Of a DNA stretch of 64,000 nt, positions 3,601 through 50,626 are shown piece by piece; the stretch's first letter is position 1; every line of letters starts with the position of its first letter. The DNA is from Patescibacteria group bacterium (GTDB lineage Bacteria > Patescibacteriota > UBA1384 > XYA2-FULL-43-10 > 1-14-0-10-43-13): positions 265,708 to 329,707 of the forward strand of contig JBAYHC010000001.1 of NCBI GenBank assembly GCA_041666325.1. Reading direction: 5' to 3'. The translations under genes and the position numbers were made by a program. A model generated the notes under the pieces. It was given only the letters and a program-made list of their open reading frames with translations, was not told the DNA's origin and searched no databases.

Positions 3601-3903
3601 ATGATAACAGCAGAAGACATTGAAAGATTGCGAATTGAGATTATCAAGCCATCTTCGGGCGAAATTACACTTGCTGACCTTGCAGCTAGAGTAATTAACA
3701 TACTCCTGATACTCGTTGGAGTTCTCGCCTTTATCTATCTCATCTATGCCGGAATACTATATATAACCTCAGCAACCAATCCTGACCAAGCACAGAAGGC
3801 ACAAAAAGCAGTTATCAACGTAATTGTTGGTATAATCGTAGTCGCCCTCGCATACACAATAGTTCGTTTAGCAGCATCGTTCGCTGCGCGGCTTGGCTTC
3901 TAG
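3601..3903 (+). CDS. Small two-TM membrane protein, TrbC/VirB2-like (pilin-like) fold typical of CPR genomes
   Basis: Two hydrophobic helices separated by SATNPDQAQKAQKA loop; no SD sequence upstream. Confidence 0.4.
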   Translation: MITAEDIERLRIEIIKPSSGEITLADLAARVINILLILVGVLAFIYLIYAGILYITSATNPDQAQKAQKAVINVIVGIIVVALAYTIVRLAASFAARLGF

Positions 3904-3966: not shown

Positions 3967-4239
3967 CTATTTTTCTTCCTTTTCCTGCTCGGCCTCTTTG
4001 CCTTCTTCGATTAGTTCACGTACGCGCTGTCCGCCTTTCTCTCCACCCTTTTTGCCAATTTCCTCGTAGAAGTCGTGACCGTGTGTCTCGCTGGTACGTT
4101 CGCCACCTTTTTCACCGATCTCCTCGTAGAATTCATGGCCATATTTTTCGCTTGTTGTTTCACCACCCTTTTTACCAGCTTCACGGACGGTCATCTCGCC
4201 ATCTTCCATCTCCTCGCGCTCTTTTTCGTCTCGGTCCAT
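3967..4239 (-). CDS. GsiB-like general stress protein, paralog 4 (two repeats)
   Basis: MTVREAGKKGGETTSEKYGHEFYEEIGEKGGERTSETHGHDFYEEIGKKGG; GAGGAGG RBS. Confidence 0.8.
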   Translation of the reverse strand: MDRDEKEREEMEDGEMTVREAGKKGGETTSEKYGHEFYEEIGEKGGERTSETHGHDFYEEIGKKGGEKGGQRVRELIEEGKEAEQEKEEK

Positions 4240-4451: not shown

Positions 4452-5684
4452 CTAGTATGGTCTCGCCAAGCGCATCGAACGAACCTGTCCCGTGGCATAG
4501 CCTCGACCATCACCCAATGGGTCATGCATTATATATTTACCACCGACCTTGTCCTTGATAACAATGAAGTGCGAAGAACCATCATTATTGATTGCGCCAA
4601 CATCTGGTAAATAAATACTAACTATAACTGGCTGGCCGGTAGCAATCTCCCTATCCACCACACTCCAGTCAATTGACTGGTTTGAGGTCACATTGATTCC
4701 AATTCCAGGAGGAGAAGAAACCATCAGCGCCCCACTACCACTAAAGATTGCTCCATTCGAGGCGATAGTATTTGGTGTAGTCCCATTGCCATAATATTTT
4801 GCAACCATCGCTATTGATGTGATCAGGCACCCGTATTGGTTGATGGTATAGGGAGAGTTGCCTAATCGAGCAAAGTTGCCGGCCTGGGAATAATACCAAC
4901 TTGGGTCATTCGAGGACACAATCTGGTCACCCCACGACCGAGTCACTACAAGAGAGCTGATCCTATTGTCGATCTCAGACATCTTGTCCCTGGCCTCTTG
5001 CTCTTGATGCCTTAGATCAGCGATAGTATTGTGCGTATCGCTAAGAAGTCTATCCTTCAGAGCTCGATCATTCTCTAGGTTTTTCCTGGCACTCTCTTGA
5101 TCATTTCGCAAGCTCTCAAAAATCTCCCTCTGACTCTCCTGTTCGTTACGTTGTCTGATTAAACTTTCTTTCACTTGGCTAATCTTGGCTTGAATCTCCT
5201 CAATCTGCCGTTTGACTGAACCATACTGCTCTTGTGTATCGACAGCGTCGGAAATATTTTCCGAGCCCATCAGGGTCCGAAGCAAACCATCGTCGCCCTC
5301 CATATACCAAGAAGAGACAACTCGCGCCATCTTAACTTTCTCCTGAGCCAGATTGTCCTCTTCGACCCTAACTTTAGCTCCGATATCGTCAATGTTGTTG
5401 CGTACGCGATTGATTTTCTGGTCAGTTGTCGCGATAGCCTTCTCGGTTTGAAAAATCCTGCTGTTGATGATCGCCATGTCGTACTCAATTGCACGTGCTT
5501 GCGACTCTTTTTCGGCCGCCTGTCTCCTCGCCTCCTCGGCTGCTTGCAGATACTGACTACGTTGCTGACGCAGAACGCTTTGACTCTCCGCCATAGCAAC
5601 GTATGGTATGACAATTTGTGATAAAACAGTCATAATGATCAACAGTCGAACAAAAAAACCTATTCCCTTAGAATACTTCTTCAT
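4452..5684 (-). CDS. Secreted coiled-coil protein with C-terminal C39-like (papain-fold) cysteine peptidase domain; PcsB-like architecture
   Basis: Signal peptide, ~230 aa heptad-rich Q/E/R region, then YSQAGNFARLGNSPYTINQYGCLITSIAMVAKYYG (C39_2-type catalytic Cys motif); AAGGAGA RBS. Confidence 0.7.
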   Translation of the reverse strand: MKKYSKGIGFFVRLLIIMTVLSQIVIPYVAMAESQSVLRQQRSQYLQAAEEARRQAAEKESQARAIEYDMAIINSRIFQTEKAIATTDQKINRVRNNIDDIGAKVRVEEDNLAQEKVKMARVVSSWYMEGDDGLLRTLMGSENISDAVDTQEQYGSVKRQIEEIQAKISQVKESLIRQRNEQESQREIFESLRNDQESARKNLENDRALKDRLLSDTHNTIADLRHQEQEARDKMSEIDNRISSLVVTRSWGDQIVSSNDPSWYYSQAGNFARLGNSPYTINQYGCLITSIAMVAKYYGNGTTPNTIASNGAIFSGSGALMVSSPPGIGINVTSNQSIDWSVVDREIATGQPVIVSIYLPDVGAINNDGSSHFIVIKDKVGGKYIMHDPLGDGRGYATGQVRSMRLARPY

Positions 5685-5903
5685 AGTGCCTAAGCAATTT
5701 CTCCTTCTTGACCCTACTGACTAAGCAGGACCACTAATAGAGCATTACAAATGAGGATTATACTACACTTTAGGCACGATCGAGGACACACCAAGACAGC
5801 CCACCCGAATCATGAGCCTGTGCGAGATCAATTGATTGTTTTCGCGATTTTATTCAATCGGGAGCAATCTATCTGCGTAACGTAAATAACAATTAATTTT
5901 TTT

Positions 5904-6661: not shown

Positions 6662-6737
<76 letters not shown>

Positions 6738-6738
6738 C

Positions 6739-6815
6739 TGGTACCTCCAGAGGGATTCGAACCCCCGACTTCCACGTCCGAAGCGTGGCGCTCTAATCCA
6801 CTGAGCTATGGAGGC
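6739..6815 (-). tRNA. tRNA-Arg (anticodon TCG)
   Basis: Anticodon stem CCACG/CGTGG loop CTTCGGA, T arm GGGGG-TTCGAAT-CCCTC; G1-U72 wobble in acceptor. Confidence 0.7.
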
Positions 6816-7844: not shown

Positions 7845-8139
7845 CTTTCCTCCTTTCTCTTGTATCTTACGTCTGCGAGATCAACTGTAAAGTCGTTCAA
7901 ATGGCCGGACTTTTCATTCGACTGATTTCCGGGCTATAATTGACATTGTGATGGTTTTTAGGTAATATGAAATCGGTAATGGGCGTGAATTTATGAAGGA
8001 TAAATTCCGATGGATGATAGCGAGTTGTTTTTTAAACTCCTTATTTTGGTGGAAAATCCTATGCTCTATATCTAGATCCGGTTATACGAAATATATTTAC
8101 GCTTAGACATCGGATATTGAGAAGGATTTTTTTAATTTC

Positions 8140-8215
8140 GGGGTGTGGCTCAGTTGGCTAGAGCACCGCGTTTGGGACGCGGGGGTCGTCGGTTCGAGTC
8201 CGACCACCCCGACCA
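8140..8215 (+). tRNA. tRNA-Pro (anticodon TGG)
   Basis: GGGGTGT acceptor, anticodon loop TTTGGGA, T arm GTCGG-TTCGAGT-CCGAC. Confidence 0.85.
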
Positions 8216-8245
8216 GATTGTTTTCCCAAAATTGATATAAAATGT

Positions 8246-8320
8246 GCGGGTATCGTATAGCGGCTATTATGCGACCCTTCCAAGGTTGAGATGCGGGTCC
8301 GACTCCCGCTACCCGCTCCA
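8246..8320 (+). tRNA. tRNA-Gly (anticodon TCC)
   Basis: GCGGGTA/TACCCGC acceptor, anticodon stem CGACC/GGTTG loop CTTCCAA, T arm GCGGG-TCCGACT-CCCGC. Confidence 0.75.
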
Positions 8321-8354
8321 TCCAACTACGCTTAAAGCTACATTGGACAAGTAT

Positions 8355-8430
8355 GGCGGCCATGGTGAAGTGGTTATCACGGCAGTTTGTGGCACTGCAG
8401 TCATGGGTTCAATTCCCGTTGGCCGCCCCA
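8355..8430 (+). tRNA. tRNA-His (anticodon GTG) with extra G-1
   Basis: G(-1)GCGGCC...GGCCGC-C73-CCA; anticodon loop TTGTGGC. Confidence 0.85.
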
Positions 8431-16732: not shown

Positions 16733-16809
16733 GGGGGCGTAGCTCAGTTGGTTAGAGCGCCTCCCTGTCACGGAGGAGGTCGCCGGTTCGAGCCCGGTCG
16801 CTCCCGCCA
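16733..16809 (+). tRNA. tRNA-Asp (anticodon GTC)
   Basis: GGGGGCG acceptor, anticodon stem CCTCC/GGAGG loop CTGTCAC, T arm GCCGG-TTCGAGC-CCGGT. Confidence 0.85.
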
Positions 16810-21805: not shown

Positions 21806-23005
21806 TTACTCGTAGCGCAAAGCGTCCAGCGGATTAAGCTTAACCGCTCGTTTGGCTGGATACCAGCCAGTTACAAAACCAATCAGAAGAGAAAAAATTG
21901 CAACCGCTACAGCAAACTGCCATGGAGTAGCAAAAACTGACACGGCTTCGCTGCCTGCCCGTTCGGCCAGCATGGTCAAAACACCATTGGTGGTATAGCC
22001 CAAGGCCTCGCCTATGGCCAGACCAAGCAAACCGCCTGCGACACCGATTATAAAAGATTCGGTGATGAATAACTTGTAAACATCTCTGTTGCGCATGCCA
22101 AGAGCTTTAAACAAGCCAACCTCGCGCATCCGCTCAAGCAGGCTTATAGTTAGAGTATTGAAAGCACCAAGAGCAGCAACCACTAGAGCGATTAAACCAA
22201 AGGCACCCAGAATCATTCTGAACAAGGAAAACACTTGAGCGATCTGGTTAACTGTATCCCCCACGTACTCACTCGACAAACCAATATTTTCCAGCTGCTG
22301 TCTAATACCGGCCACGCTATCGCGGTTGTCCGCTTTAAGCTTTAATGATGAATATTTGGTTGCATCATTTTTTGCTAAAAGCTCCAGAGGAACCAAAATT
22401 ATCGGCGTTTTGTCATCTTTGATTACACCGACCACCGTCGCCTGAATTCCTTCAGCCACCTTAATGCCGTCGATCTCATTGCTCCGAAGTTCTTTTGGAA
22501 TTATGATATCCAGGCTCAATTTTTGACCAATGATTGTGTCGGCACTTTCCCCCACCAGGCTAATAATTGATTGATTTACCGACACTTCGCTATCGCCGGC
22601 AGGAAGTTTTCCTTTGTCGGCATAGATGTCAGAGAGTTTCCAGTAATCAGCATCCGCACCTACAATTACCGTCTCAGTCGATGATGAACTATCGACTTTC
22701 TTGAGACGGCCAGCCAGATTAACAACTGGCGCAATCTTCTCAATGTGACCGAAATTTTGAACTTTTTCAACGATGGTTTGATTAATGCTCAAGGTTTTTA
22801 AGTTGGCCGAAGGGACATCAATGACGGTAAAGGCGTTAAAATTCGCCACCTGATTGGTCACCAACTGCTCAAGGCCATAACCAAGCGAGACCAAAAAGAC
22901 AATTGCGCCAATACCAATCGTTACACCCAGAACCGTCAAGGTTGTCCGCAACCTGTGCGACCAAAGATTCTTGAAAGCAATTGTAAAGATTATTCTTAGC
23001 CTCAT
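21806..23005 (-). CDS. ABC transporter permease, FtsX/MacB family (large extracytoplasmic domain + 4 TM)
   Basis: N-terminal TM, ~230-aa extracellular domain, C-terminal FtsX-type TM bundle (LLERMREVGLFKALGMRNRDVYKLF). Confidence 0.85.
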   Translation of the reverse strand: MRLRIIFTIAFKNLWSHRLRTTLTVLGVTIGIGAIVFLVSLGYGLEQLVTNQVANFNAFTVIDVPSANLKTLSINQTIVEKVQNFGHIEKIAPVVNLAGRLKKVDSSSSTETVIVGADADYWKLSDIYADKGKLPAGDSEVSVNQSIISLVGESADTIIGQKLSLDIIIPKELRSNEIDGIKVAEGIQATVVGVIKDDKTPIILVPLELLAKNDATKYSSLKLKADNRDSVAGIRQQLENIGLSSEYVGDTVNQIAQVFSLFRMILGAFGLIALVVAALGAFNTLTISLLERMREVGLFKALGMRNRDVYKLFITESFIIGVAGGLLGLAIGEALGYTTNGVLTMLAERAGSEAVSVFATPWQFAVAVAIFSLLIGFVTGWYPAKRAVKLNPLDALRYE

Positions 23006-23745
23006 AGCACCCCTTTTAGTTCTTCTTTGATTGCTTTTTTAATTTCTGATTCCCCGCCGGCCGCAATTACGCCATCACGCATTGCAATTTTTTTGGTTGC
23101 CATTGGCAAATAGATTAAATTGTGAGAAACCATAATAACTGTGCGTTTACTTTTTACTTGAAGAGATTGAAATAGATTCATTATTTCATCGGAGCTATGC
23201 GAGTCAAGATTGCCAGTTGGCTCATCCGCGACTATAATCCAAGGATTATTAACCAAGGCCCGAGCCAAACCAACCCTTTGTTGCTCGCCACCCGAAAGCT
23301 GCATCGGGCGCTTGCTCCAATATTTTGCCATCCCGACTTCTTCGAGAGATTTTATCGCCCGATTTTTCGCCGCGCTGGTTTTCTCGCCAGCAATCAATAG
23401 TGGCATCGCCACATTTTCCCAGACTGTTAGAGCTTTGATCCAAAAAGGTGACTGGTAGACCATGCCAAACTTCTCGGCGCGAAAAGCCGCTCGCTCCTCT
23501 TCTTTGAGTTTATAAATATCCGTTCCCCGGATTTTAACACTGCCATCGGTCGGCTTTTCTAAACCAACAATGGTGTGCAGCAGGGTTGATTTGCCGCAAC
23601 CAGACGGTCCATAAATTATAGCGAAATCTGTCGCCCTGATCTCCAAATCAAGACCAAGCAAAACCGGTGCCTTACGGCCGCCATCCAAAATATAGTCTTT
23701 CTTCAGACCAGAGATCTTGATAATTGTATCGTGAGACCCTTCCAA
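23002..23745 (-). CDS. ABC transporter ATP-binding protein (FtsE/MacB-type)
   Basis: GPSGCGKST Walker A, LSGGEQQRV signature, IIVADEPTGNLD Walker B; ATGA overlap with permease; TTG start. Confidence 0.85.
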   Translation of the reverse strand: MEGSHDTIIKISGLKKDYILDGGRKAPVLLGLDLEIRATDFAIIYGPSGCGKSTLLHTIVGLEKPTDGSVKIRGTDIYKLKEEERAAFRAEKFGMVYQSPFWIKALTVWENVAMPLLIAGEKTSAAKNRAIKSLEEVGMAKYWSKRPMQLSGGEQQRVGLARALVNNPWIIVADEPTGNLDSHSSDEIMNLFQSLQVKSKRTVIMVSHNLIYLPMATKKIAMRDGVIAAGGESEIKKAIKEELKGVL

Positions 23746-23771
23746 AATCCCTCCCAGCGGAAAACTTATAC

Positions 23772-26700
23772 TTATTGTAATTTTGTTCCAAAGGCACCAA
23801 AGATCCAGCCCAGCGAGCGCTGTAGCGAATTGAGAATAATATCGATAACTGATTTCTGGACTTTCCCTGTGATGGTGGTCGTATCCTCTGAAGCACCAAG
23901 GTTGCCGGCATTGTCATGGGAAACTGCCCGCAGATGATAAATCTTGCTGGGATCAAGTTCGGAGACAATTACCACGTGGCTGGTTGAGTAAGCCATATCC
24001 TCTTTGGTCTTGTTGGGGTAATCCTTGCCGGAAATGCCGGGACCATATTCAATCTGGCTGGTCGCCGGTTCATCAGTTTCCCAGGTAACAATAATCTGGG
24101 CTTTTTGAGCATCACTAATACCCGAAGCCTTGACCTCGGTTGTCATATTGTTAATCTTGGGCGGTCGGGAATCAAGGGGTGTTTTAAAGGTGTTTACATC
24201 AGAGGTAGCCTGATTACCAAACTGATCGCGGCTGATCGCCTGCAACTGGTATGTTTGTTGATCTACGAGACCCCTAATCACGATTTCGTGATCAGTCACA
24301 AATTGTGAAGTTGCTGACTCCTTTTTTTCTGCTTTGTCAGAAACGTAAGTCACCGCAGATGAGGCCGGAACGTTTGTTTTCCAGCCGACTTTGATTGAGG
24401 TTAGGGCTTCCTCGTTGGCCGTTTCAAAGCGCAAGTCAGAGATGCGAGGTTGAGCAATGGTCGTGAAGGCATGGCCTGGCGAGACTACTTCGTTATTATC
24501 AGCGTCTCTGATCGTAACCTTGACCTGGTAGGTTGTGCCATCTTGCAGATCAGACATCCGAACAACATGCTTGGTCGTCCCACCACCTGAGTCATCTTTG
24601 ATCGTCTGCCCATAATCCGTGGTCGCGCCATATTCAATGGTCGATGAAGATGCTTTGTTTGTATCAAAACTAAGAATCGTGGAATTTGTTGAAGTATCAC
24701 TGAATATAACATTGGCCAAAGCGGGAGCAGCAGTAGTTGTAAAAGTGTAATCAGCCGAGTAGCCAAGAGACTGGCTGTAGTCACGCAAGTCACCGGGATC
24801 CAAACTCTGGGTCTTGAAGTGGTAGAGTGTGCCGGGGGCCAAGCCGGTAATTTTGACCGAATGATCAGTTTTTTCTTCACGGGCGCCCAAACTTAGACCA
24901 TAACTTGTCGTCGTGCCATACTCGACAAAGGCATCTGATTTGCGATCAGTGGTCCAAGTAATCTCGGCACTGGTTGCCCCAGCGACTGCTTCGACGCTAT
25001 CAGCATCAATCGTCGGCGGTGCGGTGTATTTGCCGGTTGGCTGTTTACTAACAATGCCGCCGGCTCCCGGATCTGCCGATACGGCTCCGGCTGAATCCTT
25101 GGCATATATTTTATAATAATAGGTTGTCTCTGAGGATAAATCGGAATCAATATAGCCGGTTGAAGCAACGCTGCCAACCGAAGAAAAGCTCGTTCCATCG
25201 GTTGAACGATGGACAATATACTGAGAAACATCTCCGCCCGATGATGGTGCGGACCAGGTCAATGTTAAGCGGTATTCGCTCGTTGCCCGGCTTGAGCTGT
25301 CAGTCAAGAGAATACTTGTGGGAATCCCCGGGGCAGTTGTGCTGACATAAAAATCCACACTACCATACAAATTGTAGTTAATCTGCTCCGTTTCATCCTC
25401 GGCCACCACGTAGAACGTGTTCTTCCCCTGCTGGGTAGCATAAGCATCGGTCGCGAGCGAGGTAGCTGTCGTCACAGTTGTATTGGTAGCCGTTGGCAGA
25501 GCGTTAATTGAATAACGATAACGCTTGATCGAACCACTATAGGTCTGAGGAATGGCCCACTGAAAGGAAACATCGTTGGCTAGAAGCGGAGCGCCCTCAC
25601 TGCTTGCCGGCAGGGCACTTACTGCCGTTGGCGCCGAGGCGCCCTCACCAGCGTAGTAGTACGAAACTGATGCCTCAGATGATGTATTGCCGGCATTATC
25701 AACCACTCGCAAGTAAAATGTGTTGACGCCGCTTTGGTATGCGGCTCCAGAAAGTGCGACCTGGGTTTCGGTTGTTGTGCTTGACCAATTTGAATAGCTG
25801 CCAGATGAGGCACCAGTCTTGTATTGATAGCCGGCAATACTCGAGCCAGTCGTTGGCGCTCCTGGGTCGGTGGCTGCCGAACTGCCGCCATTGGGCCAGA
25901 GAAAAGTAAAAGTCGTGCTGGTAGTAAAGCCGGAGGGCGAGGCTGACACGATTGATGGAGGCGTCGGTGCCGCTGCATCATATTTGTAAGTGAAAGCAGC
26001 ATAAGCACTCTCGGGATAATTTTCTGCCCTGTCTTTAGCCAGAACCCGCAGATAGTAAGTCGTGCCGTTAGCAATAGCCGCGGTGTCAGTGCCAATAATT
26101 ATTGCGGTACCGCTTTGGAAATGAATGCCGGTTCCGCCCACTTCGGTGGCGATGCCTCGGGTTGTCCTTGGGTCAGCACTGTCGGAAGTACCGAAGTAAA
26201 CCCAATACCCTTCGATTCCACTACCAGCATCTGAGCCGTCGCCCCAAGTAAACTTAGGTGCTGCGTAATTGTACCAATTTCCGCTTGTAAGCTCTGTTGA
26301 GCCGCCATCGGCGTTAATTGCAGTTAAAGATGCCGGATTCGTCGGATTGGTAGTATCTGCCGTATATTGAACCTCAACACTACTCAAAACAACTTGCTGA
26401 CTACCACTACCAGTCAAAATCGCCTGCCACAGCAGTCCAACGTTAGATACGGAAAAAGTGGCAATATTAGCGTGAATATCCGCCTCACTATTAGCATTAG
26501 CCAGCGAGTTTGATGCTACCCAAGCTGAACTATTCCAATATTTCCAGCTTGTTCCGTTGTCATCAGATAATCGATAAGTAATCGTGCCACCATTGAGTGT
26601 TTCTTCGGCCACAAAACCGCTCCAGGCACCGACGTCTGAATCATCAACCGCACTCGTTGGCTGAATGGTTTGAGCCGAGTTAGTATAAGGGCTGGTTGTA

Positions 26701-29700
26701 AATGAAGTCCTTGCAGTATTGCTTATCCGGACTTCATCGATCATTCCAGCGAGTTTGCCAAGAGTTAATCCTGCCCCGGTGGTGCCCTGAGCGCCACCAA
26801 TATAGAGTGAATATGCGCTGTCTGCTAAAGTAACCGAACCAAAAGCAGTTGCAGAATCCTCTAATCCATCCACATAGATTTTGGCCGTCGCGCCATCGTA
26901 GGTGGCAGCGATGTGGTACCAACCAGCATCCCAGCTAGACCTAGATGATGCAGCAATCTTGTTGTCACCATACGACCAGATCTCGCCATCACCGGCCCCA
27001 GTGCCAAGACCGGCAATAAGTTTGCCATTGTAAACGGTCATTGATTGAACATCTTCATAATTACCGGTCACCCAACTGACGCCAACAGTATCTCCCCCAA
27101 CTTTTGTCCAGCTTGAACCATCGTATTTCCAGATTTCAGCGTCGCCAGCAGAGCTGCCCAAACCAGCATAGAGCTCGCCATTATAGCTAACTAGAGAACT
27201 CACTTTTTCATAGTCGGTATTCCAGCTATTGTTTAAACCATCGCCCCCTATCTTGGCCCAGGCAGAACCATTCCAAGACCAAACCTCTGCTTCACCGGCA
27301 CTACCCCAGCCCAATCCGGCATACAATACCCCTTGATTGATCGCCAAAGAAGCCACTCCTTCATGAGGGCCATCGGACCAGGTATCATTAAGTCCGTCTC
27401 CACCAAGCTTAGTCCAAGTAGAACCATTCCACTTCCAGACTTCCGGATCAGTAGTATATGCACTGCCTAACCCCACTAAAACATTAGAGCCAGAGACTAA
27501 AATAGTATCGATGATTTCATAGGTAGCATCCGCCCAGCTAGAATTGACGGTGTCGCCGCCAATTTTGCTCCAAGTCGAGCCGTCCCATTTCCAAAGCTCA
27601 GCCTCCCCAGTCGAATAACCAAGACCGGCATACAAATTCGTTCCGTCAGAGGCAAGGGATCGGGCTCGTTCATAGGTAGTATCCGCCCAGCTAGAATTGA
27701 CGGTGTCGCCGCCAATTTTGCTCCAAGTCGAGCCGTTGTAGCGCCAGACCTCGGCATCACCAGCACCATCGCCCAACCCAGCATAGAGATAAGTTGCGTC
27801 CGAGGTCATCGAGAAAACAGTCTCATAGGTGGAATCCGCCCAGCTAGAATTGACGGTGTCGCCGCCAATTTTGCTCCAAGTCGAGCCGCTCCACTTCCAA
27901 ACCTCCGCTTCACCGCTACTGGTACCCAAACCAGCGTATAGATTACCCCCAAAATAATTCATCGAACTGACAGAATCATAACCGGAATTCCAACCAGAAT
28001 TGGTGTTATCACCACCAATCTTGGTCCAAGCAGATCCACTCCAAGACCAAACTTCTCCGTCGCCACTACCAGTACCCAAACCGGCATATAGATTAGTACC
28101 GTCACCCACCATCGAAATAACATATTCATATCCAGTACTCCAACCCGAGTTCAAGCCATCGCCACCAATCTTGGCCCAAGAAGTGCCATTGTAGCGCCAA
28201 ACCTCGGCATCTCCCGATGTCTGGCCCAAGCCTGCATAGAGATAAGTAGCATCCGCGTAGAGTGAGTAGACCGATTCATAGGTAGCTCCCGCCCACGATG
28301 AATTGGTGCCATTTCCCCCAATCGGAGTCCAGGCACCGGTCGAACCGTCATATTCATAAACAACCGCATCGCCAGGCGATGTTCCATGAAGACCAAAATA
28401 CTGTTTATTATTATAATTAGCCGAAGACATAACATCGCTCTCATAACCAGGCCCCCAGCTTTTATAGGCGCTTCGTCCACCAATCATCTCCCATGCTGAG
28501 CCATTGTAGCGCCAAACCTCCGCATCCGTGTACGACGTTCCTCCTGAACCATACAGAGCGACGTATAAAAATTGATTATCAGTAACAGCATTAACAACAT
28601 AAAGCGTAGTGTTCCACGATGAATTTGCTCCATCGCCGCCAACTTTGGTCCAAGCCGAGCCGTTCCAGGACCAGACTTCTCCATCGCCGCTGCTTATGCC
28701 ACCAACTCCGGCATATAGGCTTCCCTGGAAATTAGCCAGGGTTTTAACGTTCCCGTATGTGCCTGCATTCCACGATGAATTTGCTCCATCGCCGCCAACT
28801 TTGGTCCAAGCCGAGCCGTTCCAGGACCAGACTTCGGCGTCTTGACCCGCAGTCCCAGATGTTCCTACATATAGAGCACCGCCCATTTCCTGGAGAGAGC
28901 TAATAGCATCAATAGTCTCGTCCCACCCTCCATTAATACCGCCGCCGCCAATCATTGACCAAGACGTACCGTCGTATTGCCAGACACTTGCTTGCTTGCT
29001 AGCAGATCCATTGCCCCAAATACCAGAGCCGGCATAGAGTTTACCATTCCCCACCGTAATAGCATCTATCTCTACCAGCTGCGGCGCGAACCAGGAATTT
29101 GTATCACGACCTCCAATGGCTGCCCAGCTAGACCCGTTCCACTTCCACACCGTACCCTCATTGACATCGCCACCCAACCCAGCATAGAGATCAGTCCCGA
29201 TCACGCTCATGCTATAAACTCTATTTTCTATCCCTGTCCATCCGGAATTAGTATTATCGCCGCCAATCTTAGTCCAGGCGGAACCGCTCCAAGACCAAAC
29301 CTCAGCATCACCGCTCGAGTCACCAAGGCCAACAACCACAGAGCTACCTAGGGCAGTAATTGCATAAACACTTTCGTAATTGGTAGTCCATCCGGAATTG
29401 ATACTGTCGCCACCGATCTTAGTCCATGTTGTGCCATCATAAATCCAGACTTCAGCATCATTACCACTAGTTGAAAGACCGGCATAAAGAGTAGTACCTA
29501 TATATGCCAGCGAGGTTATTTGTTCATAAGTAGCATCGGCCCAGGAGCTATTAGCAGCGTCACCGCCGATTTTTGTCCAGGTGGTACCGTCATAGCCCCA
29601 GACTTCAGCATCGCCAGCTGAAGCGCCAAGACCCGCGTAAAGCGTGGTGGACCCATTGGTAGCAAGCGACCAAACACTTTCATAACTCGTGGCCCAGGAA

Positions 29701-30893
29701 GAGCCTACCCCATCACCGCCGATTTTTGTCCAGGAACTACCATCATAACTCCAAACTTCGGCATCTCCAGCATAGGCAGAATATATTGAAGCACAAAGAG
29801 TATTGGCATAAACAACGAGATCCCTTACTAAATAATAGCTGTTAGAGGCCGAGCTCCAACTACTGTTTTGACCATCACCACCGATTTTGGTCCAGGATGT
29901 GCCATCATACTTCCACACCTCACCGTCATAAGAGCTGCTCCCCAAACCTGAATAAAGCTCATTATTATATACTGCGAGGCCATAAACCCCTTCATAATCA
30001 GCCCCATTCCAGGAGCTGCGGACACCATCTCCGCCAATTTTTGTCCAGGATGACCCACTCCCGCTATATTTCCAGACTTCACCTGCACCAGCAGCACCGA
30101 CCAATCCAGCATAGAGCTCGTTGTTCCAGACGACTGTTGAGCTTACATAGTTTGTGCCGTGATCAGACCAATCACCATTCCCCACCCCCTCAGCAAGCTT
30201 ACTCCAGCTTTTGGCCGTATTGGGGGTTAAATCAAATTTTAACTTACCATCTGTATCGTCAAAATATAGCTTATAGTTGCCCTTATCAAAGACGCTAGCA
30301 GGAACACTTTGGGTACTGTCAAAGGCACTATTAAACTTAACATAGGCTTCGAGTGTCATAGCACCAGAGAGAGACGTGGTGCTTGAGTCAGCTACCGTAG
30401 CAACACTGCCCAAGCCACTGCCAGTAAATGATGTTCCGTTACCAGCCTTTCCTGAAGCAAAGCTGGCGCCGCTGCCGAGAGTAGCAGTGTTACTATTACC
30501 AGATGAATCAGTTGCGCTTGTCCCCTCCGTCTCGTCAAAGTGCCAAAGCGCGTTAGTGTTGTCATCGTCGCTTAGCTGCTGCAATTTATGGCGGGCTGAA
30601 TTGGACACAATCTCAAGATTGGAGCTGTTATAGGTGTAGTCAGACGAATTGCCAAATGTCCAAGTATTGGCAGCTGCATAAGCGTTTGTACTGCCACCAA
30701 AAAACGACTGGAACAAAATAGAAGTTATCAAGAGGACATAAATTGCCAGTGCCCCAAAATGAACCCTTTGGTGGTGTGGATTATGATGCCAATTATGATA
30801 GAGGGTTGATTTAGATAGCAAAAAATCATGCGCTTTGCTTAAGTGTCTGATCCTAGTCTTAGAACAGTTTGTATGCAAACACTTCCCCAACAT
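23772..30893 (-). CDS. Giant (2373 aa) cell-surface protein. Order: N-terminal signal anchor; LamG/concanavalin-like domain; ~30 tandem ~50-aa Kelch/tectonin-like beta-propeller repeats (consensus AEVW.YDGS.W.KIGGDG.NSSW...YE.V.S....LYAGLG.S.GD); second LamG_3-like domain; several Fn3/PKD-like domains
   Basis: Single uninterrupted ORF; repeats visible at protein and DNA level; start site uncertain (GGAGGG immediately abuts ATG 30893). Confidence 0.8.
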   Translation of the reverse strand: MLGKCLHTNCSKTRIRHLSKAHDFLLSKSTLYHNWHHNPHHQRVHFGALAIYVLLITSILFQSFFGGSTNAYAAANTWTFGNSSDYTYNSSNLEIVSNSARHKLQQLSDDDNTNALWHFDETEGTSATDSSGNSNTATLGSGASFASGKAGNGTSFTGSGLGSVATVADSSTTSLSGAMTLEAYVKFNSAFDSTQSVPASVFDKGNYKLYFDDTDGKLKFDLTPNTAKSWSKLAEGVGNGDWSDHGTNYVSSTVVWNNELYAGLVGAAGAGEVWKYSGSGSSWTKIGGDGVRSSWNGADYEGVYGLAVYNNELYSGLGSSSYDGEVWKYDGTSWTKIGGDGQNSSWSSASNSYYLVRDLVVYANTLCASIYSAYAGDAEVWSYDGSSWTKIGGDGVGSSWATSYESVWSLATNGSTTLYAGLGASAGDAEVWGYDGTTWTKIGGDAANSSWADATYEQITSLAYIGTTLYAGLSTSGNDAEVWIYDGTTWTKIGGDSINSGWTTNYESVYAITALGSSVVVGLGDSSGDAEVWSWSGSAWTKIGGDNTNSGWTGIENRVYSMSVIGTDLYAGLGGDVNEGTVWKWNGSSWAAIGGRDTNSWFAPQLVEIDAITVGNGKLYAGSGIWGNGSASKQASVWQYDGTSWSMIGGGGINGGWDETIDAISSLQEMGGALYVGTSGTAGQDAEVWSWNGSAWTKVGGDGANSSWNAGTYGNVKTLANFQGSLYAGVGGISSGDGEVWSWNGSAWTKVGGDGANSSWNTTLYVVNAVTDNQFLYVALYGSGGTSYTDAEVWRYNGSAWEMIGGRSAYKSWGPGYESDVMSSANYNNKQYFGLHGTSPGDAVVYEYDGSTGAWTPIGGNGTNSSWAGATYESVYSLYADATYLYAGLGQTSGDAEVWRYNGTSWAKIGGDGLNSGWSTGYEYVISMVGDGTNLYAGLGTGSGDGEVWSWSGSAWTKIGGDNTNSGWNSGYDSVSSMNYFGGNLYAGLGTSSGEAEVWKWSGSTWSKIGGDTVNSSWADSTYETVFSMTSDATYLYAGLGDGAGDAEVWRYNGSTWSKIGGDTVNSSWADTTYERARSLASDGTNLYAGLGYSTGEAELWKWDGSTWSKIGGDTVNSSWADATYEIIDTILVSGSNVLVGLGSAYTTDPEVWKWNGSTWTKLGGDGLNDTWSDGPHEGVASLAINQGVLYAGLGWGSAGEAEVWSWNGSAWAKIGGDGLNNSWNTDYEKVSSLVSYNGELYAGLGSSAGDAEIWKYDGSSWTKVGGDTVGVSWVTGNYEDVQSMTVYNGKLIAGLGTGAGDGEIWSYGDNKIAASSRSSWDAGWYHIAATYDGATAKIYVDGLEDSATAFGSVTLADSAYSLYIGGAQGTTGAGLTLGKLAGMIDEVRISNTARTSFTTSPYTNSAQTIQPTSAVDDSDVGAWSGFVAEETLNGGTITYRLSDDNGTSWKYWNSSAWVASNSLANANSEADIHANIATFSVSNVGLLWQAILTGSGSQQVVLSSVEVQYTADTTNPTNPASLTAINADGGSTELTSGNWYNYAAPKFTWGDGSDAGSGIEGYWVYFGTSDSADPRTTRGIATEVGGTGIHFQSGTAIIIGTDTAAIANGTTYYLRVLAKDRAENYPESAYAAFTYKYDAAAPTPPSIVSASPSGFTTSTTFTFLWPNGGSSAATDPGAPTTGSSIAGYQYKTGASSGSYSNWSSTTTETQVALSGAAYQSGVNTFYLRVVDNAGNTSSEASVSYYYAGEGASAPTAVSALPASSEGAPLLANDVSFQWAIPQTYSGSIKRYRYSINALPTATNTTVTTATSLATDAYATQQGKNTFYVVAEDETEQINYNLYGSVDFYVSTTAPGIPTSILLTDSSSRATSEYRLTLTWSAPSSGGDVSQYIVHRSTDGTSFSSVGSVASTGYIDSDLSSETTYYYKIYAKDSAGAVSADPGAGGIVSKQPTGKYTAPPTIDADSVEAVAGATSAEITWTTDRKSDAFVEYGTTTSYGLSLGAREEKTDHSVKITGLAPGTLYHFKTQSLDPGDLRDYSQSLGYSADYTFTTTAAPALANVIFSDTSTNSTILSFDTNKASSSTIEYGATTDYGQTIKDDSGGGTTKHVVRMSDLQDGTTYQVKVTIRDADNNEVVSPGHAFTTIAQPRISDLRFETANEEALTSIKVGWKTNVPASSAVTYVSDKAEKKESATSQFVTDHEIVIRGLVDQQTYQLQAISRDQFGNQATSDVNTFKTPLDSRPPKINNMTTEVKASGISDAQKAQIIVTWETDEPATSQIEYGPGISGKDYPNKTKEDMAYSTSHVVIVSELDPSKIYHLRAVSHDNAGNLGASEDTTTITGKVQKSVIDIILNSLQRSLGWIFGAFGTKLQ
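27531..27910. repeat. Three intragenic copies of a 56-nt identical DNA segment (atccgcccagctagaattgacggtgtcgccgccaattttgctccaagtcgagccg) at ~145-160 bp spacing; a second pair (ccacgatgaatttgctccatcgccgccaactttggtccaagccgagccgttccaggaccagacttc) at 28615 and 28775
   Basis: Exact string identity seen in sequence; reflects recent homogenisation between propeller blades. Confidence 0.7.
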
Positions 30894-30938
30894 CCCTCCA
30901 TAGAATCAAAAAACGATCCGCACAAATTGCTATCTACT

Positions 30939-30947
30939 ATTCTACCA
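30939..30947 (-). promoter_or_regulatory. Extended -10 (TGgTAGAAT) upstream of the giant gene
   Basis: Minus-strand reading tTGgTAGAAT ~45 nt upstream of ATG. Confidence 0.3.
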
Positions 30948-31056
30948 AAACTTTCAGAAAACACAAAGGTTGGATCTCGATGAATAAGCGCCGGAAAAAA
31001 ATTCCATCCCCACCGTCTCTTGCTTCCCCTCTACTCTATCTTCTAGCGGCAAATAG

Positions 31057-31875
31057 TTAATCAAAAACCAGAAATGCCTTTTGGCCATTGTTGATATTCT
31101 GTGGATCCCAATCATGAATGGCGTCAAAGAGATCTTCATACTTATAGAGATAGCCCTCACCGTTTTTCGTGCCGGGATCGTTTGTAATAAATTCATCTTC
31201 ATCGTAACCAACTATCACCAACATGTGATATTTGGGGCCGCCGTTACGAAAATTAGGGTTAGGAAGCGCTTTGCCTGATGCAGGGATAATTACAGGTCGG
31301 CCGGCGGCAATTTCTTTCTTCAAATCATCGACCGTAAAGTCATATACGATACGGCTACCGCTGATTGAGAAGTAATCATCAGCGGCTATTGATAGTTCTC
31401 GCAACGTGATTGATCCACCGTAACCGGCTCGCTCTTCGTAAGCGACCATTTTCTTGATCTCTTCGTCACCATCAGCACGAGATATTGTCGATTTGTTATC
31501 TAAAAAATGCCTCACCATAATCAAACTCGCCTCCTCGCATGCATCTTCGTGTAGAGCATCCCAATTGGCAGATGGAGCCTGAGACAAAAACGGCACTTTA
31601 ATGAGCCAGGTCATGGGCAATGCAGCATTCGAGAAGCTCTCTGCGACCTTCTTCTCGTCTGGATCAAGCGCATCTCCTTTATCCGAGATACTGGGTACCA
31701 TCTCAGCGCTCTCCTGTAGCTCAGATGTCTCAGCTGATTGATTTTGTTCCTCTTCCAGAGTCGAGATCTTCTCGGTCTCCCTTCCTTCCAAGAAGATAAT
31801 TACGCCTGTTGCCAAAATAATAGCGGTTACGATTGCAAACATAATCCTGCGCCATTTTGGGAGTTGTTTTGCCAT
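31057..31875 (-). CDS. Membrane-anchored C39-like (C39_2 family) cysteine peptidase domain protein
   Basis: N-terminal TM, VPFLSQAPSANWDALHEDACEEASLIMV catalytic-Cys motif, later HMLVIVGYDEDEFITNDPG His region. Confidence 0.7.
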   Translation of the reverse strand: MAKQLPKWRRIMFAIVTAIILATGVIIFLEGRETEKISTLEEEQNQSAETSELQESAEMVPSISDKGDALDPDEKKVAESFSNAALPMTWLIKVPFLSQAPSANWDALHEDACEEASLIMVRHFLDNKSTISRADGDEEIKKMVAYEERAGYGGSITLRELSIAADDYFSISGSRIVYDFTVDDLKKEIAAGRPVIIPASGKALPNPNFRNGGPKYHMLVIVGYDEDEFITNDPGTKNGEGYLYKYEDLFDAIHDWDPQNINNGQKAFLVFD

Positions 31876-31886
31876 ATCCTTGTTGA

Positions 31887-32744
31887 TTATTTAGATTGAT
31901 TTAATAGCAAGCCTACCCTCTCCTCCCGGACTCCTCGACCCAACTTAAATAGAAGTACACCGGCGAGCAAAGTCAACACTGTCTCAGCAATTAAGAGAAT
32001 CTTTAGCTCTTCAAATATTATATGGATTATCTTATCAAGACCGATCAGCAGCTTCTGATCAGTAATACCCCAAACTCCAATTTTGCTTGAGAGAAAATTT
32101 GGCAATACAAGATAGACAAACAGCGTGAGGCCCAGGAGAATCAAACCGACAAAAAATATATCGATCCCCACCCACGAGAAGCGCTTGGAAGCAGTCTTTC
32201 CGGAGAGCAAGAACAGTGATAATGTCGACAAAACTACAATCAAGAATTCAATGATAATTAGCAAATTAATATTTGATAATAACCTAATAACCAGACCGTT
32301 TCCCAATACTGTTTTCTTCTCCCCACCAAAAACACCGTCGTAGCCAACCTCCGCCAATGACAACCCTGTCTTGCTGTTAAATTTTTCTTGAACAGTACTA
32401 TTAATAGAAGTGAAAGAGATCATAATAGACGAGTCAGCACTAGGGTTGTCAATAACCTGGAAAAACTGATCTATCGCCCCCTCTGACAACTGCCGGATCA
32501 CGTCAGGGGTAATTGACTCTGATAAAACTTCAACAAACACACCATCTCCAGCTTTCATGTCAACTTCCTTGGAGAAGGTCTCTCTCATGCTGGCAGCTGT
32601 GAATTCGTAGGCATTACTCTTAAGTGCTATTCCCTTCAGTTTTTGGGGAGAAAGAAATGAAGCCTTCAGGTCTAGGGCTAGAATTAGTATCAGAGAATTA
32701 AAAAGGAGAAGAAAGAAAAATAGGGCGGCAAAAATTTTTCGCAT
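31887..32744 (-). CDS. Integral membrane protein, unknown function
   Basis: N- and C-terminal TM segments flanking a soluble domain; 11-nt gap to downstream gene. Confidence 0.55.
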   Translation of the reverse strand: MRKIFAALFFFLLLFNSLILILALDLKASFLSPQKLKGIALKSNAYEFTAASMRETFSKEVDMKAGDGVFVEVLSESITPDVIRQLSEGAIDQFFQVIDNPSADSSIMISFTSINSTVQEKFNSKTGLSLAEVGYDGVFGGEKKTVLGNGLVIRLLSNINLLIIIEFLIVVLSTLSLFLLSGKTASKRFSWVGIDIFFVGLILLGLTLFVYLVLPNFLSSKIGVWGITDQKLLIGLDKIIHIIFEELKILLIAETVLTLLAGVLLFKLGRGVREERVGLLLNQSK

Positions 32745-32745
32745 A

Positions 32746-32898
32746 CTAGCCTTTCTTAGCCCGTCGGAAAATTATGGAGGCTCCCAAGACGATAAACAGA
32801 ACTGGCCAGATAACATCCCACGAGTCAGCCGGCAATAGTCCGAGATTTTGAAGCAGAAGAACAACTCCCACGAGCAATAAAGTAATACCAAACCACAT
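32746..32898 (-). CDS. Small (50 aa) two-TM membrane protein not in the ORF track: MWFGITLLLVGVVLLLQNLGLLPADSWDVIWPVLFIVLGASIIFRRAKKG
   Basis: AGGAGCGGAT RBS 6 nt before ATG 32898; stop 1 nt before next gene start (translational coupling). Confidence 0.45.
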   Translation of the reverse strand: MWFGITLLLVGVVLLLQNLGLLPADSWDVIWPVLFIVLGASIIFRRAKKG

Positions 32899-32925
32899 AT
32901 CCGCTCCTATTTTAATTACATGCAC

Positions 32926-33684: not shown

Positions 33685-33758
33685 TCCGAGATCGTCTAAT
33701 GGCAGGACAGCGGCCTTTGAAGCCGTGAATCTTGGTTCGAATCCAAGTCTCGGAACCA
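33685..33758 (+). tRNA. tRNA-Gln (anticodon TTG)
   Basis: U1-A72 acceptor TCCGAGA/TCTCGGA, anticodon loop CTTTGAA, T arm CTTGG-TTCGAAT-CCAAG. Confidence 0.8.
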
Positions 33759-33909
33759 ATTGGATAGGTTCATCCCCAGGCCAGGCCGTCAGATCAGTAA
33801 AATTTCTTAACTCCTTGCGGTTTTGAATTCAGACAACTTCGCAAGATGGTACCAACAGTTAGCGCATCTCCTTAACGCAGACAAGAATAACCGGGTAGCG
33901 CCCTCTCTG

Positions 33910-33983
33910 GCAAGATTAGTTTAGTGGTAAAATGCGTCCTTCCCAAGGATGAGTCGCCGGTCCGATTCCGGTATCTTGCTCCA
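33910..33983 (+). tRNA. tRNA-Gly (anticodon CCC)
   Basis: GCAAGAT/ATCTTGC acceptor, anticodon loop TTCCCAA, T arm GCCGG-TCCGATT-CCGGT. Confidence 0.8.
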
Positions 33984-33984
33984 A

Positions 33985-34060
33985 GCCGATATAGCTCAGT
34001 TGGTAGAGCAGCACTTTCGTAAAGTGAAGGTCGCCAGTTCAAATCTGGCTATCGGCTCCA
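33985..34060 (+). tRNA. tRNA-Thr (anticodon CGT)
   Basis: GCCGATA/TATCGGC acceptor, anticodon loop TTCGTAA, T arm GCCAG-TTCAAAT-CTGGC. Confidence 0.85.
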
Positions 34061-43396: not shown

Positions 43397-43963
43397 TTAC
43401 TTTGCCAGATGCTTCAGGCACCATCTAATTTTCTCTTCAGCAGTGTCAACCTCAACCGGAACCCTGGCCAAGGCCTTTGATATCTCAAACTTCTTGTACC
43501 CTAGACCAACAAGCGCTCCAACAACATCAGAGGCCTCACCGGCACTGCTAATTATTCCCGCTACATCAATATCAGACATTTTTGATTTAAGTTCCAGGAT
43601 AATTTTTGCAGCGACCTTCTGACCAATGCCTGGGATCCCGGTAAAGAAGGAAACATCCTCGGATGATATCGCCTGTAAAATTCTCTCCGGATCGCCAATT
43701 CCGATTATCGCCATTGCCGCCTTTGGTCCAACACCATTAACAGTAATGAGTTGCTCAAATATCTCCATTTCAGTAAATGTAGGGAAGCCGTAAAGATCGT
43801 CCGTGTCCTCACGTATGTGCTCGTATACAAAAAAAAATTGCTCTGATCCGACTAAATAGTCAGAGTCCTTGACTAAGCTTAGACGATAACCAACACCGCT
43901 GGTTTCAATAATAGCATAGCCAGGGCGAGAAACGATTATTTTTCCTTTGATGTAACCAATCAT
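43397..43963 (-). CDS. ruvA: Holliday junction DNA helicase RuvA
   Basis: MIGYIKGKI...HhH motifs GIPGIGQKVAAKIILEL. Confidence 0.85.
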   Translation of the reverse strand: MIGYIKGKIIVSRPGYAIIETSGVGYRLSLVKDSDYLVGSEQFFFVYEHIREDTDDLYGFPTFTEMEIFEQLITVNGVGPKAAMAIIGIGDPERILQAISSEDVSFFTGIPGIGQKVAAKIILELKSKMSDIDVAGIISSAGEASDVVGALVGLGYKKFEISKALARVPVEVDTAEEKIRWCLKHLAK

Positions 43964-44256
43964 ATTGTGATGAACAAATCCAAAGTTAAACGGGCCTTTG
44001 ACCGATTAATCGTATTATAACAAGGTATTATAGTAATTTTCCAGTGCGTAAAAGGAGTGAAGCGACTATTGCAAGATATAAAGCAATGAAGCTTAGATAC
44101 AAAGCGCAACAAAGCCAAAGGCTTTATAACAAGATACGAGGCAATGTGACAACGATACACTGCCCACAGGGACCATTTGGGTCGTTAAAAAAACGAAGTG
44201 ACTATACATTAAATAGGCTCGTTTGCTAGAGCCAAAGATTTTCCAGGCAAGTTATC
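43964..44256. repeat. Second locus of the dispersed repeat family (CAGTGCGTAAAAGGAGTGAAGCGACTATTGCAAGATATAAAGCAATGAAG ... CTTTATAACAAGATACGAGGCAATGTGACAACGATACAC ... GCCCACAGGGACC)
   Basis: Sequence identity to copies in 43199-43396 and 47285-47355. Confidence 0.55.
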
Positions 44257-44904
44257 TTACCGACCCAGGCTGAGCCCGTCTATCTTAAAAAAATCTGATT
44301 GCAAAGCGTTGATTATCCCGCGAACGGCCAGGTCCTCCTTGTCGTCACCAACGAATATTGGATTTCCGTTGGGCAGTGCTCTGATTTTTTCATCAATCTT
44401 CTCCAGTGCGAACACCTTATCTCTCAAGAAAGGCTCGGCGCCACCAACGATTATTGCAGGCATGCCGCTTTCGAAGATCATACTATAATCTACGGCGCCA
44501 TCACCCGCTACCACTCCAGAAAAATCCAACTGCTTCTGTAAATAGAGTGCGGCGAGATTTTTATCGGAAAGTTGCGCGTGATCTGTGTCTTGCAGATATC
44601 TGCCATTCAACTGCCTTACATAAATTTCACTCCCCAAAGAAACAGCCATGACATCGAATTGCGGTAACGACTCGATGCCCTCCACCATTTCCCTCCTTCT
44701 GCCAGTGATGTACACAAGACCCCAACACAAATACTGAAGATAATTATATAACCGCCACATGTCATCGACTGTCTCTGGGCTATAGAATGTGTTGTCAATA
44801 TCCGTCAGAAGCACGGGAAAAGCTCTTTTTTGTTTCTTGTGCCCCTGACTCTTGTGCCAAATCACACTCTCCCTGTAAGCCTTAGGAATCATGAACTTTG
44901 TCAT
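44257..44904 (-). CDS. HAD-IIB family phosphatase, sucrose-phosphate-phosphatase-like
   Basis: LLTDIDNTF (DxDxT), GDGAVDYSM...IIVGGAEP motifs. Confidence 0.7.
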   Translation of the reverse strand: MTKFMIPKAYRESVIWHKSQGHKKQKRAFPVLLTDIDNTFYSPETVDDMWRLYNYLQYLCWGLVYITGRRREMVEGIESLPQFDVMAVSLGSEIYVRQLNGRYLQDTDHAQLSDKNLAALYLQKQLDFSGVVAGDGAVDYSMIFESGMPAIIVGGAEPFLRDKVFALEKIDEKIRALPNGNPIFVGDDKEDLAVRGIINALQSDFFKIDGLSLGR

Positions 44905-47191: not shown

Positions 47192-47284
47192 GGTGTGCCG
47201 ACTGCGGCACACCACCTTAACACAGCGGCAAGAACGTGGCAATCAGATTTTTGTCACACACAAAAATTACCCAAATTAGAACTA

Positions 47285-47355: not shown

Positions 47356-47360
47356 AGTAT

Positions 47361-48314: not shown

Positions 48315-48328
48315 AATAAATTAAGTGA

Positions 48329-50521: not shown

Positions 50522-50626
50522 AAAAACAGCTTATGCCGGTTACCACACAATTTATTCCCAAGCATAAGCAAAATTATATGAACATACCATAACCGCAAAA
50601 GCGCCATTTGTCAATGCTAAAAGACG

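Follow-up and report, generated by a model that had tools for sequence, protein, structure and literature searches.

A stretch of 64,000 nucleotides of DNA from a Patescibacteria group bacterium (hereafter, the window; contig JBAYHC010000001.1, positions 265,708 to 329,707) carries at 4452..5684, on the minus strand, a complete gene that begins with ATG and encodes 410 amino acids followed by a stop codon. The product appears to be a secreted protein in which a coiled coil is followed by a hydrolase domain of the Peptidase_C39_2 family. This report deals with that protein, with the family to which it belongs, and with their relationship to FtsEX, whose control over wall hydrolases is a central and conserved step of bacterial cell division, elucidated so far solely for partners that bear an M23/LytM, CHAP, or NlpC/P60 head. 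The identical protein is on record at NCBI (MFA5926978.1 and MFA6531508.1, named 'C39 family peptidase') on a 687-kb contig. We found 92 homologs of 390–450 amino acids, each of which comes from a Patescibacteria-type metagenome bin, and because they share this architecture, the open reading frame is not a chance one. The labels presently attached to proteins of this family in the databases are just 'C39 family peptidase' or 'CwlO-like'.

Three parts were recognized in the protein. One is the N-terminal segment of amino acids 1–32 (5589..5684, minus strand), whose sequence, MKKYSKGIGFFVRLLIIMTVLSQIVIPYVAMA followed by ES, comprises a basic n-region of the form KK..K, a hydrophobic helix, and the motif A-M-A before E33. 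Judged from this sequence and from the helix at amino acids 8–24 in the AlphaFold2 (AF2) model, the segment reads as a Sec signal peptide, and its cleavage site is placed before E33 from the sequence; the hydrophobic N-terminus is kept across the family in an alignment of 46 sequences. Another is an antiparallel two-helix coiled coil at amino acids 35–249 (about 215 residues; 4938..5582, minus strand). The last is the Peptidase_C39_2 domain at amino acids 251–410 (4455..4934, minus strand), which has a papain fold according to Pfam, to a model of the domain, and to the fold matches. The AF2 model of the full-length protein, built on 46 aligned homologs, has a mean predicted local distance difference test (pLDDT) value of 87 and consists of the helix 8–24, two long helices (35–140 and 144–249) joined by a turn of low confidence, and an alpha/beta domain (255–410). 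Thus, the order of signal peptide, long coiled coil, and C39_2 peptidase that an earlier note had read from the letters of this DNA is confirmed by Pfam, by AF2, and by the 92 homologs.

The catalytic head was assigned as follows. Pfam Peptidase_C39_2 (PF13529) matches amino acids 264–377 with an expectation value (E) of 5e-10 and 40.6 bits against a cut-off of 24, and it matches all of the 46 family members. The canonical Peptidase_C39 (PF03412) reaches 20.7 bits, which is under its cut-off of 22, and CHAP (PF05257) gave no match at E ≤ 0.1 in the Pfam search. The heads of the known FtsEX partners are LytM/M23 (EnvC), CHAP (PcsB), and NlpC/P60 (CwlO and RipC) (PMC11627006); with C39_2 and the sub-cut-off C39 as its only Pfam matches, the present head lies outside this set. 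Unlike the C39 domains of canonical exporters, it is located at the C-terminus of a protein that begins with a signal peptide and has no transporter part.

Five residues of the head, Q267, G285, C286, H372, and D388, are invariant among the 46 homologs, down to 23% identity. C286 (4827..4829, minus strand), at the N-terminus of the helix 286–297, is the candidate nucleophile; H372 (4569..4571, minus strand), at the start of the strand 372–380, is the candidate general base; and D388 (4521..4523, minus strand), 16 residues past the His, is the candidate third residue of the triad. The QYGC sequence that the earlier note had regarded as the catalytic motif is present at amino acids 283–286 and contains the invariant C286, but its Q283 is variable; therefore, the Gln of the oxyanion hole is probably the invariant Q267 (4884..4886, minus strand). 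The order of Gln, Cys, His, and Asp is that of papain and C39, and in the profile alignments the Cys, His, and Asp fall on those of the C39-like proteins 3erv_A and 6mpz_A. Structure prediction of the peptidase domain, which had been suggested as a check, gave a confident papain-like fold when the head was modeled alone (pLDDT 93.9; predicted template modeling score 0.91). The nearest solved folds are all papain folds: the pseudomurein endoisopeptidase PeiR, which is the best match, cathepsins K and S, a papain-like toxin, and the C39 domain of PCAT1. The best matches among predicted viral folds are the lytic domain of a tape-measure protein, cyanophage proteins named 'lysozyme' or endolysin, and phi29-type morphogenesis hydrolases (E of 3e-5 to 4e-4; template modeling (TM) scores of 0.54–0.63). 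A survey of phage lysins counts Peptidase_C39_2 among the catalytic domains of endolysins (PMC8223927).

The coiled coil is a homolog of the one with which EnvC and PcsB bind FtsX. When the single sequence was compared with the Protein Data Bank (PDB), the sole match of note was EnvC (E of 0.0013). When the family profile was compared with all PDB sequences, ranks 1–4 were occupied by EnvC (8tzk_E, 8.4e-17; 8hd0_E, 5.7e-16; 6tpi_A, 1.3e-12; 8i6o_E, 1.1e-6). These four chains come from structures of FtsEX–EnvC or of EnvC with the extracellular domain (ECD) of FtsX, and each of them aligns in register over the whole coiled coil. Unrelated coiled coils appear from an E of 2.7e-5, and PcsB, RipC, and RipA appear at 0.0025–0.007. 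The Pfam model CC_PcsB recognizes 11 of the 46 members of the family, and together with the EnvC matches this bears out the description of the protein as a PcsB-like coiled-coil hydrolase. A comparison of folds that used the full-length model was dominated by generic coiled coils (Tc toxins, chemoreceptors, and SMC), and PcsB, EnvC, RipA-N, and RipC came only at ranks 14–32. The only recognizable motifs in the coiled coil, SWYM.G, S.SLS, and YY.SI..QI, are located at the tip of the hairpin (amino acids 121–160; 5205..5324, minus strand), where the family pattern can be written as SWYMEG…L..S.N/LS……Y.S[IV]..QI. In EnvC, residues 114–160 bind two FtsX ECDs (PMC11627006), and these residues are equivalent to the present tip; by this analogy, the tip is presumed to be the docking site for the FtsX ECD. 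The profile also matched, over its amino acids 52–113 in helix 1 (E of 3.6e-5), a solved protein of 93 residues derived from a hypothetical protein of Candidatus Giovannonibacteria (7o97_A), which may be a fragment of a related coiled-coil protein of the candidate phyla radiation (CPR; Patescibacteria).

The strongest evidence for the link of the family to FtsEX is its genomic context in the relatives. An FtsX profile was built from 120 CPR FtsX sequences, and the open reading frames of 67 loci from GTDB species representatives, the best of which encodes a protein 44% identical to that of the window, were scanned with it; the species of the window has no entry in this collection. The count given here takes in the 62 family loci with enough upstream DNA; two other loci, L003 and L004, are additional to it. 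In 56 of the 62 loci, the gene is immediately preceded, on its own strand, by a genuine ftsX of the FtsX_ECD type (about 300 amino acids), which scores 104–542 bits on the CPR FtsX profile. This ftsX follows ftsE, and the distance from the ftsX stop codon to the start of the partner gene is mostly −3 to +60 nucleotides, often with a 4-bp overlap. In L003 and L004, likewise, the gene follows ftsE and an ftsX of 301–304 amino acids with the FtsX_ECD and FtsX domains, and the gaps are 13 bp. No ftsX lies directly upstream in L015, L017–L019, L054, and L057, which are about 10% of the relatives. A cross-match of the two lists of homologs indicated that several contigs of only 2.8–5.6 kb appear to hold both ftsX and the family gene. 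The tie between the protein's family and FtsEX, which had been proposed from the window, is thereby upheld by the ftsE–ftsX pair directly upstream in these 56 loci.

Some further observations were made on these operons. For loci L004–L070, the identity of FtsX to that of L003 was compared with the corresponding identity of the coiled-coil partner; the slope was 0.94, with a residual standard deviation of 4.5 points, and such near-equal divergence is compatible with the co-evolution of an interacting pair. The FtsE of L003 (6109–7065) has 318 amino acids, including a Lys/Glu-rich N-terminal extension of about 95 amino acids, while that of L004 (225 amino acids) is without the extension; the FtsE proteins of L076 and L080 are likewise long (289–310 amino acids). 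Ten records (L025, L028, L032, L034, L037, L040, L049, L052, L067, and L069) carry the CPR-type operon of ftsX and the coiled-coil C39_2 gene despite their titles of 'uncultured Gammaproteobacteria/Pseudomonadales' or 'Saccharibacteria' (third-party annotation bins), and these titles look like mislabelled taxonomy.

The position behind ftsX is not reserved for C39_2 heads. In L003, the gene order is serS–hpf–secA–ftsE–ftsX–(coiled coil plus C39_2)–ctpB–(687 amino acids)–LemA–MamF. In L080, it is serS–…–secA–…–ftsE–ftsX–(398 amino acids, coiled coil plus Peptidase_M23)–ctpB–(729 amino acids)–LemA–MamF, which matches L003 gene for gene. In L076 and L077, it is secA…ftsE–ftsX–(392 amino acids, coiled coil plus CHAP)–ctpB. 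The signal peptide and coiled coil of the window protein align with those of the coiled-coil M23 protein at 34% identity without gaps over 256 residues (E of 1e-44), and the similarity stops where the heads begin; the comparison with the CPR coiled-coil CHAP protein gave an E of 6e-31 and includes the tip, SWYMEGD…LSDAV. The tip motif is thus common to all three kinds of protein. A profile of the coiled coil only, run against 1.84 billion representative sequences, retrieved 5,145 proteins at E ≤ 1e-10, and the heads borne by 120 of its best matches were M23 (57), C39_2 (28), and CHAP (27); an NlpC/P60 head was found in none of these 120. Because the homologous coiled coil in the same slot bears C39_2, CHAP, or M23, we regard these proteins as one scaffold family in which the head has been exchanged in place. 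The heads are not always mutually exclusive, since in two genomes a coiled-coil C39_2 gene and then a coiled-coil M23 gene stand in tandem after ftsX and before ctpB (L027, 7142–8335; L044, 7249–8337).

From these data, it is reasonably probable that Peptidase_C39_2 constitutes a fourth catalytic class of FtsEX-coupled division hydrolase, so far undescribed. On this reading, the class originated when C39_2 took the place of an M23 or CHAP head on the conserved FtsX-binding coiled coil, and in several lineages of Patescibacteria (Microgenomates groups, Berkelbacteria, Andersenbacteria, and relatives) its gene regularly stands third in the ftsEX operon. As for the gene order itself, the corresponding region of B. 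subtilis, which we take to be hpf–secA–prfB…ftsE–ftsX–ctpB, resembles those of L003 and L080; if so, hpf–secA–…–ftsE–ftsX–(partner)–ctpB is an old conserved arrangement.

The closeness of the coiled coil to that of EnvC raises the question of whether the C39_2 head might be catalytically inert. In E. coli, EnvC carries a LytM domain that is degenerate, and a degenerate C39_2 head could in the same manner switch on another hydrolase. This is the least probable of the readings that we weighed, and an EnvC-like inert activator was ruled out by the catalytic residues: the set of Gln, Cys, His, and Asp is invariant across the family, which is the opposite of a degenerate site. In addition, CPR cells are believed to be bounded by one membrane only, and the FtsEX partners of single-membrane organisms are themselves enzymes (PMC11627006). 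The M23 protein that occupies the same slot also retains its site: in L080 (7033–8229), unlike in E. coli EnvC, the zinc-site motifs HxxxD (HTGID) and HxH (HTH) are kept, and from these motifs that protein is probably an active enzyme.

In the genome of the window, the gene has a different setting. Its upstream neighbors, which share its strand, are genes for a phosphoribosyltransferase, two tRNA-Arg (1 kb away), and a PRC-barrel protein. Just downstream are genes for a KGG-repeat protein of 90 amino acids (3967–4239, minus strand; stress-induced, LEA_5-like) and for a T4SS_pilin-like membrane protein of 100 amino acids (3601–3903, plus strand). A search that covered, out of the 687-kb contig, the window (by tblastn and hmmsearch) and the 10 kb flanking the gene on each side detected no ftsX or ftsEX of the FtsX_ECD type. 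The LTD–TsaE–TsaD–LytR–SurA block, which is located downstream of the operon in L004, is located upstream and in the opposite orientation in the window genome; from this difference in position and orientation, we conclude that a rearrangement separated the gene from ftsEX. The regression described above predicts an identity of about 50% for the FtsX of the window genome, and since this is below the 55% floor of the list of the top 120 FtsX matches, the absence of this genome from that list is uninformative.

Possible expression signals of the gene's own were found at 5701..5762 (minus strand) by manual reading: a perfect TATAAT at 5757–5762 and AAGGAG at 5701–5706, 16 nucleotides before the ATG. 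A sigma-70 consensus scan of the 219-nucleotide gap upstream of the gene called no promoter there, the −35 element being poor. Judging by these short elements, the gene probably has its own promoter in the window genome, and its product would be expected to act in trans with an ftsEX pair from another part of the chromosome.

The same setting can be explained in another way, namely that the protein is a secreted lysin or protease independent of FtsEX, acting as an autolysin or, in an epibiotic lifestyle, as a weapon or attachment factor against the wall of a host. Linkage to ftsEX is absent here and in about 10% of the relatives, the gene may have a −10 element of its own, and the fold of the head resembles phage lytic domains. 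However, the full coiled coil and the SWYMEG tip motif have been retained, which is hard to explain without a partner, and nothing in the neighborhood indicates an interaction with a host. Moreover, the genes for known FtsEX partners such as cwlO, pcsB, and ripC are also often unlinked from ftsEX. We therefore consider this explanation unlikely, though it deserves more weight than the other rival explanations discussed in this report.

Two other features of the window are recorded here. It contains 11 tRNA genes in small clusters (866–1016, 6662–6815, 8139–8430, 16733–16809, and 33685–34060). The region 43397–53686 (minus strand) encodes many GT4 glycosyltransferases, APH-type kinases, GH130, a galactose-1-P uridylyltransferase-like protein, and an S6PP-like phosphatase, and adjoins ruvAB, queA, and queH (queuosine); the region is possibly an island for surface glycans or for the salvage of sugars.

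The earlier note had suggested the FtsEX role for a pair of genes for an ABC ATPase and a permease at 21806–23745 (minus strand), described as the only FtsE/FtsX-like pair of the window and as part of an operon with a second C39-like protein. If this were so, the pair would act as an FtsEX-like mechanotransmitter on the coiled-coil protein or on the second C39_2 protein. Some of this description stands. The pair closes a same-strand cluster that includes the gene for the second C39_2 protein (31057–31875, minus strand; 272 amino acids, membrane-anchored, and YvpB-like), it is the only type VII pair, that is, one with the FtsX fold, in the window, and no other FtsE/FtsX-like gene was found there by tblastn and hmmsearch; transporters of the MacB family do work by mechanotransmission. 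However, the permease (21806–23005, minus strand; 399 amino acids) consists of MacB_PCD (PF12704, 2e-19) and a C-terminal FtsX-like module of four transmembrane segments (PF02687, 6e-23), and the Pfam search did not find FtsX_ECD in it. On the NCBIfam models for FtsX, it obtained 31–43 bits against cut-offs of 225–255, and only with its C-terminal transmembrane part; on the CPR FtsX profile, it obtained 17 bits, against the 104–542 of genuine FtsX. The ATPase obtained 186 on the FtsE model, whose cut-off is 265. The best NCBIfam models for the permease were LolCE and MacB, and the ATPase was closest to LolD, all under the equivalog cut-offs. Judged by these profiles, the pair is a generic MacB/LolCDE-type (type VII) transporter and not FtsEX, and the permease being clearly of the MacB type is the very finding that had been named as speaking against the proposal.

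Other observations point in the same direction. The pair is 16 kb from the coiled-coil gene, with unrelated genes between them, and the family members are paired with a genuine FtsX in the 56 loci described above. The second C39_2 protein has no coiled coil and belongs to a very large YvpB-like family (2,205 matches at E ≤ 1e-10), and no ABC genes adjoin its homologs in the two neighborhoods that were inspected. Its similarity to the head of the coiled-coil protein (E of 1e-4 over 64 amino acids) is so distant that a recent duplication of the two C39_2 genes was ruled out. Accordingly, the further suggestion of a duplicated or specialised FtsEX system within the window is not supported, given the distance of the second C39_2 protein, the neighborhoods of its homologs, and the type of the permease. 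An action of this ABC pair on either C39_2 protein is thus very improbable and close to refuted.

The cluster containing the pair (21806–32900, minus strand) encodes, in this order, a LiaF-TM-like protein of 50 amino acids, a polytopic membrane protein of 285 amino acids, the 272-amino acid C39_2 protein, a repeat-rich surface protein of 2373 amino acids, the ATPase, and the permease. The gene for the surface protein (7.1 kb) separates the ABC pair from the second C39_2 gene, and its product has about 30 repeats of the type GDAEVW…W.KIGGDG, LamG, several Fn3/Ig-like domains, and a hydrophobic C-terminal tail. The cluster could be a MacB-type system for the export or processing of this giant protein.

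Taken together, the gene context, the coiled coil, and the exchange of heads make it likely that the family, including the copy in the window, consists of wall hydrolases governed by FtsEX. The protein is most likely the CPR counterpart of PcsB, CwlO, RipC, and EnvC, that is, a wall hydrolase that separates daughter cells. Its action may be pictured by analogy with the work on FtsEX–EnvC, FtsEX–RipC, and PcsB (PMC11627006). The tip of the hairpin (approximately amino acids 121–160) would dock onto the FtsX dimer, between its two extracellular domains, and the catalytic head would be kept inactive against the coiled coil. The binding and hydrolysis of ATP by FtsE at the divisome would then compress or shift the coiled coil so as to free the C39_2 domain, and the freed domain would cut peptide bonds in the septal peptidoglycan, by which the daughter cells would separate. 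The C39_2 head may cut a peptidoglycan bond different from those cut by the known partners.

Several points weigh against this interpretation. One is the missing ftsEX in the surveyed surroundings of the gene. Another is that the conservation of the tip exceeds that of the rest of the coiled coil only modestly (2.1–2.2 bits per column in the tip blocks, one of which has 1.75, against 1.5–2.1 elsewhere), and that a few residues in the tip of the window protein differ from the consensus (Q153 for Y, and NIS for SLS). The structure predictions were of single chains only, and the steps of docking and autoinhibition are therefore based on analogy. The matches of the head to solved structures are weak (E of about 2e-3 and upwards, TM scores of about 0.5). 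The last points concern the reaction: a C39-like archaeal protein was reported to be active on galactoside analogues, in the manner of a glycosidase, and to have no activity on wall peptides (PMC13642728), and our literature search found neither an enzymatic activity for any member of the family or any close C39_2 relative nor a peptidoglycan bond specificity for C39_2 members. The bond assigned to the head is, for this reason, a guess.

These last points are also those on which a further explanation is founded, in which the protein is controlled by FtsEX but is not a peptidoglycan peptidase, its head processing a division or surface protein or cleaving a bond other than a peptide bond. Canonical C39 enzymes cleave double-glycine leader peptides, and both the glycosidase-type activity of the archaeal enzyme and the want of a demonstrated bond specificity in the literature on C39_2 fit with it. 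On the other side, CHAP and M23, which are both peptidoglycan hydrolase domains, take the place of the head in situ on the same scaffold, the structural neighbors of the head are wall-lytic, and C39_2 is counted among the endolysin domains. Such a role thus seems improbable, and we prefer the reading in which the FtsEX-governed protein is a wall hydrolase.

In the open-access literature on FtsEX together with Patescibacteria or CPR, C39, or C39-like proteins, no partner with a C39_2 head and no ftsE–ftsX–C39_2 operon was found described. Should the C39_2 proteins be genuine partners, the list of FtsEX-partner heads would be extended, a concrete function would be given to part of a large and poorly characterised Pfam family whose members are labelled only as 'C39 family peptidase', and the enzyme that probably separates the cells of many uncultivated ultra-small bacteria would be identified. 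The occurrence of three heads on one scaffold in one slot would offer a clean comparative system for activation, a natural swap experiment on how FtsEX releases chemically unrelated enzymes. There is also a lesson for annotation: a match to an 'FtsX-like permease', such as that of the MacB-type pair in the window, should not by itself be read as FtsEX.

Finally, the protein can be compared with the known systems. EnvC (E. coli, V. cholerae, and P. aeruginosa; 6tpi, 8hd0, 8tzk, and 8i6o) resembles it in having a signal peptide and an antiparallel two-helix coiled coil of the same length; the tip of the EnvC hairpin is the binding site for the FtsX ECD, and the relatives of the window protein are encoded next to ftsEX. 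EnvC differs in that its degenerate LytM (M23) domain activates amidases, whereas the window protein has a C39_2 head with an intact catalytic set and is probably itself an enzyme. PcsB (S. pneumoniae; 4cgk) is also a secreted coiled coil followed by a Cys/His hydrolase head of the papain superfamily, and it appears among both the sequence and the fold matches, although the sequence similarity is weak (E of 0.0025). Its head is CHAP (PF05257) and its coiled coil is a V-shaped one of five helices, in contrast to the C39_2 head (PF13529) and the simple EnvC-like hairpin found here. CwlO (B. subtilis) and RipC (M. tuberculosis; 8idc) combine a coiled coil with a C-terminal cysteine peptidase in the same way, and FtsEX activates them directly; RipC matches weakly in both the profile and the fold search, and the head of both proteins is NlpC/P60 instead of C39_2. 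The YvpB-like C39_2 proteins (3erv) and canonical C39 (PF03412; PCAT1 7n87, and 6mpz) share with the head the papain fold and the order Gln…Cys…His…Asp. However, canonical C39 is the cytoplasmic N-terminal part of ABC exporters that cut double-glycine leaders, and the YvpB-like proteins, including that at 31057–31875, have no coiled coil, while the head of the window protein is extracytoplasmic and is placed behind a coiled coil.

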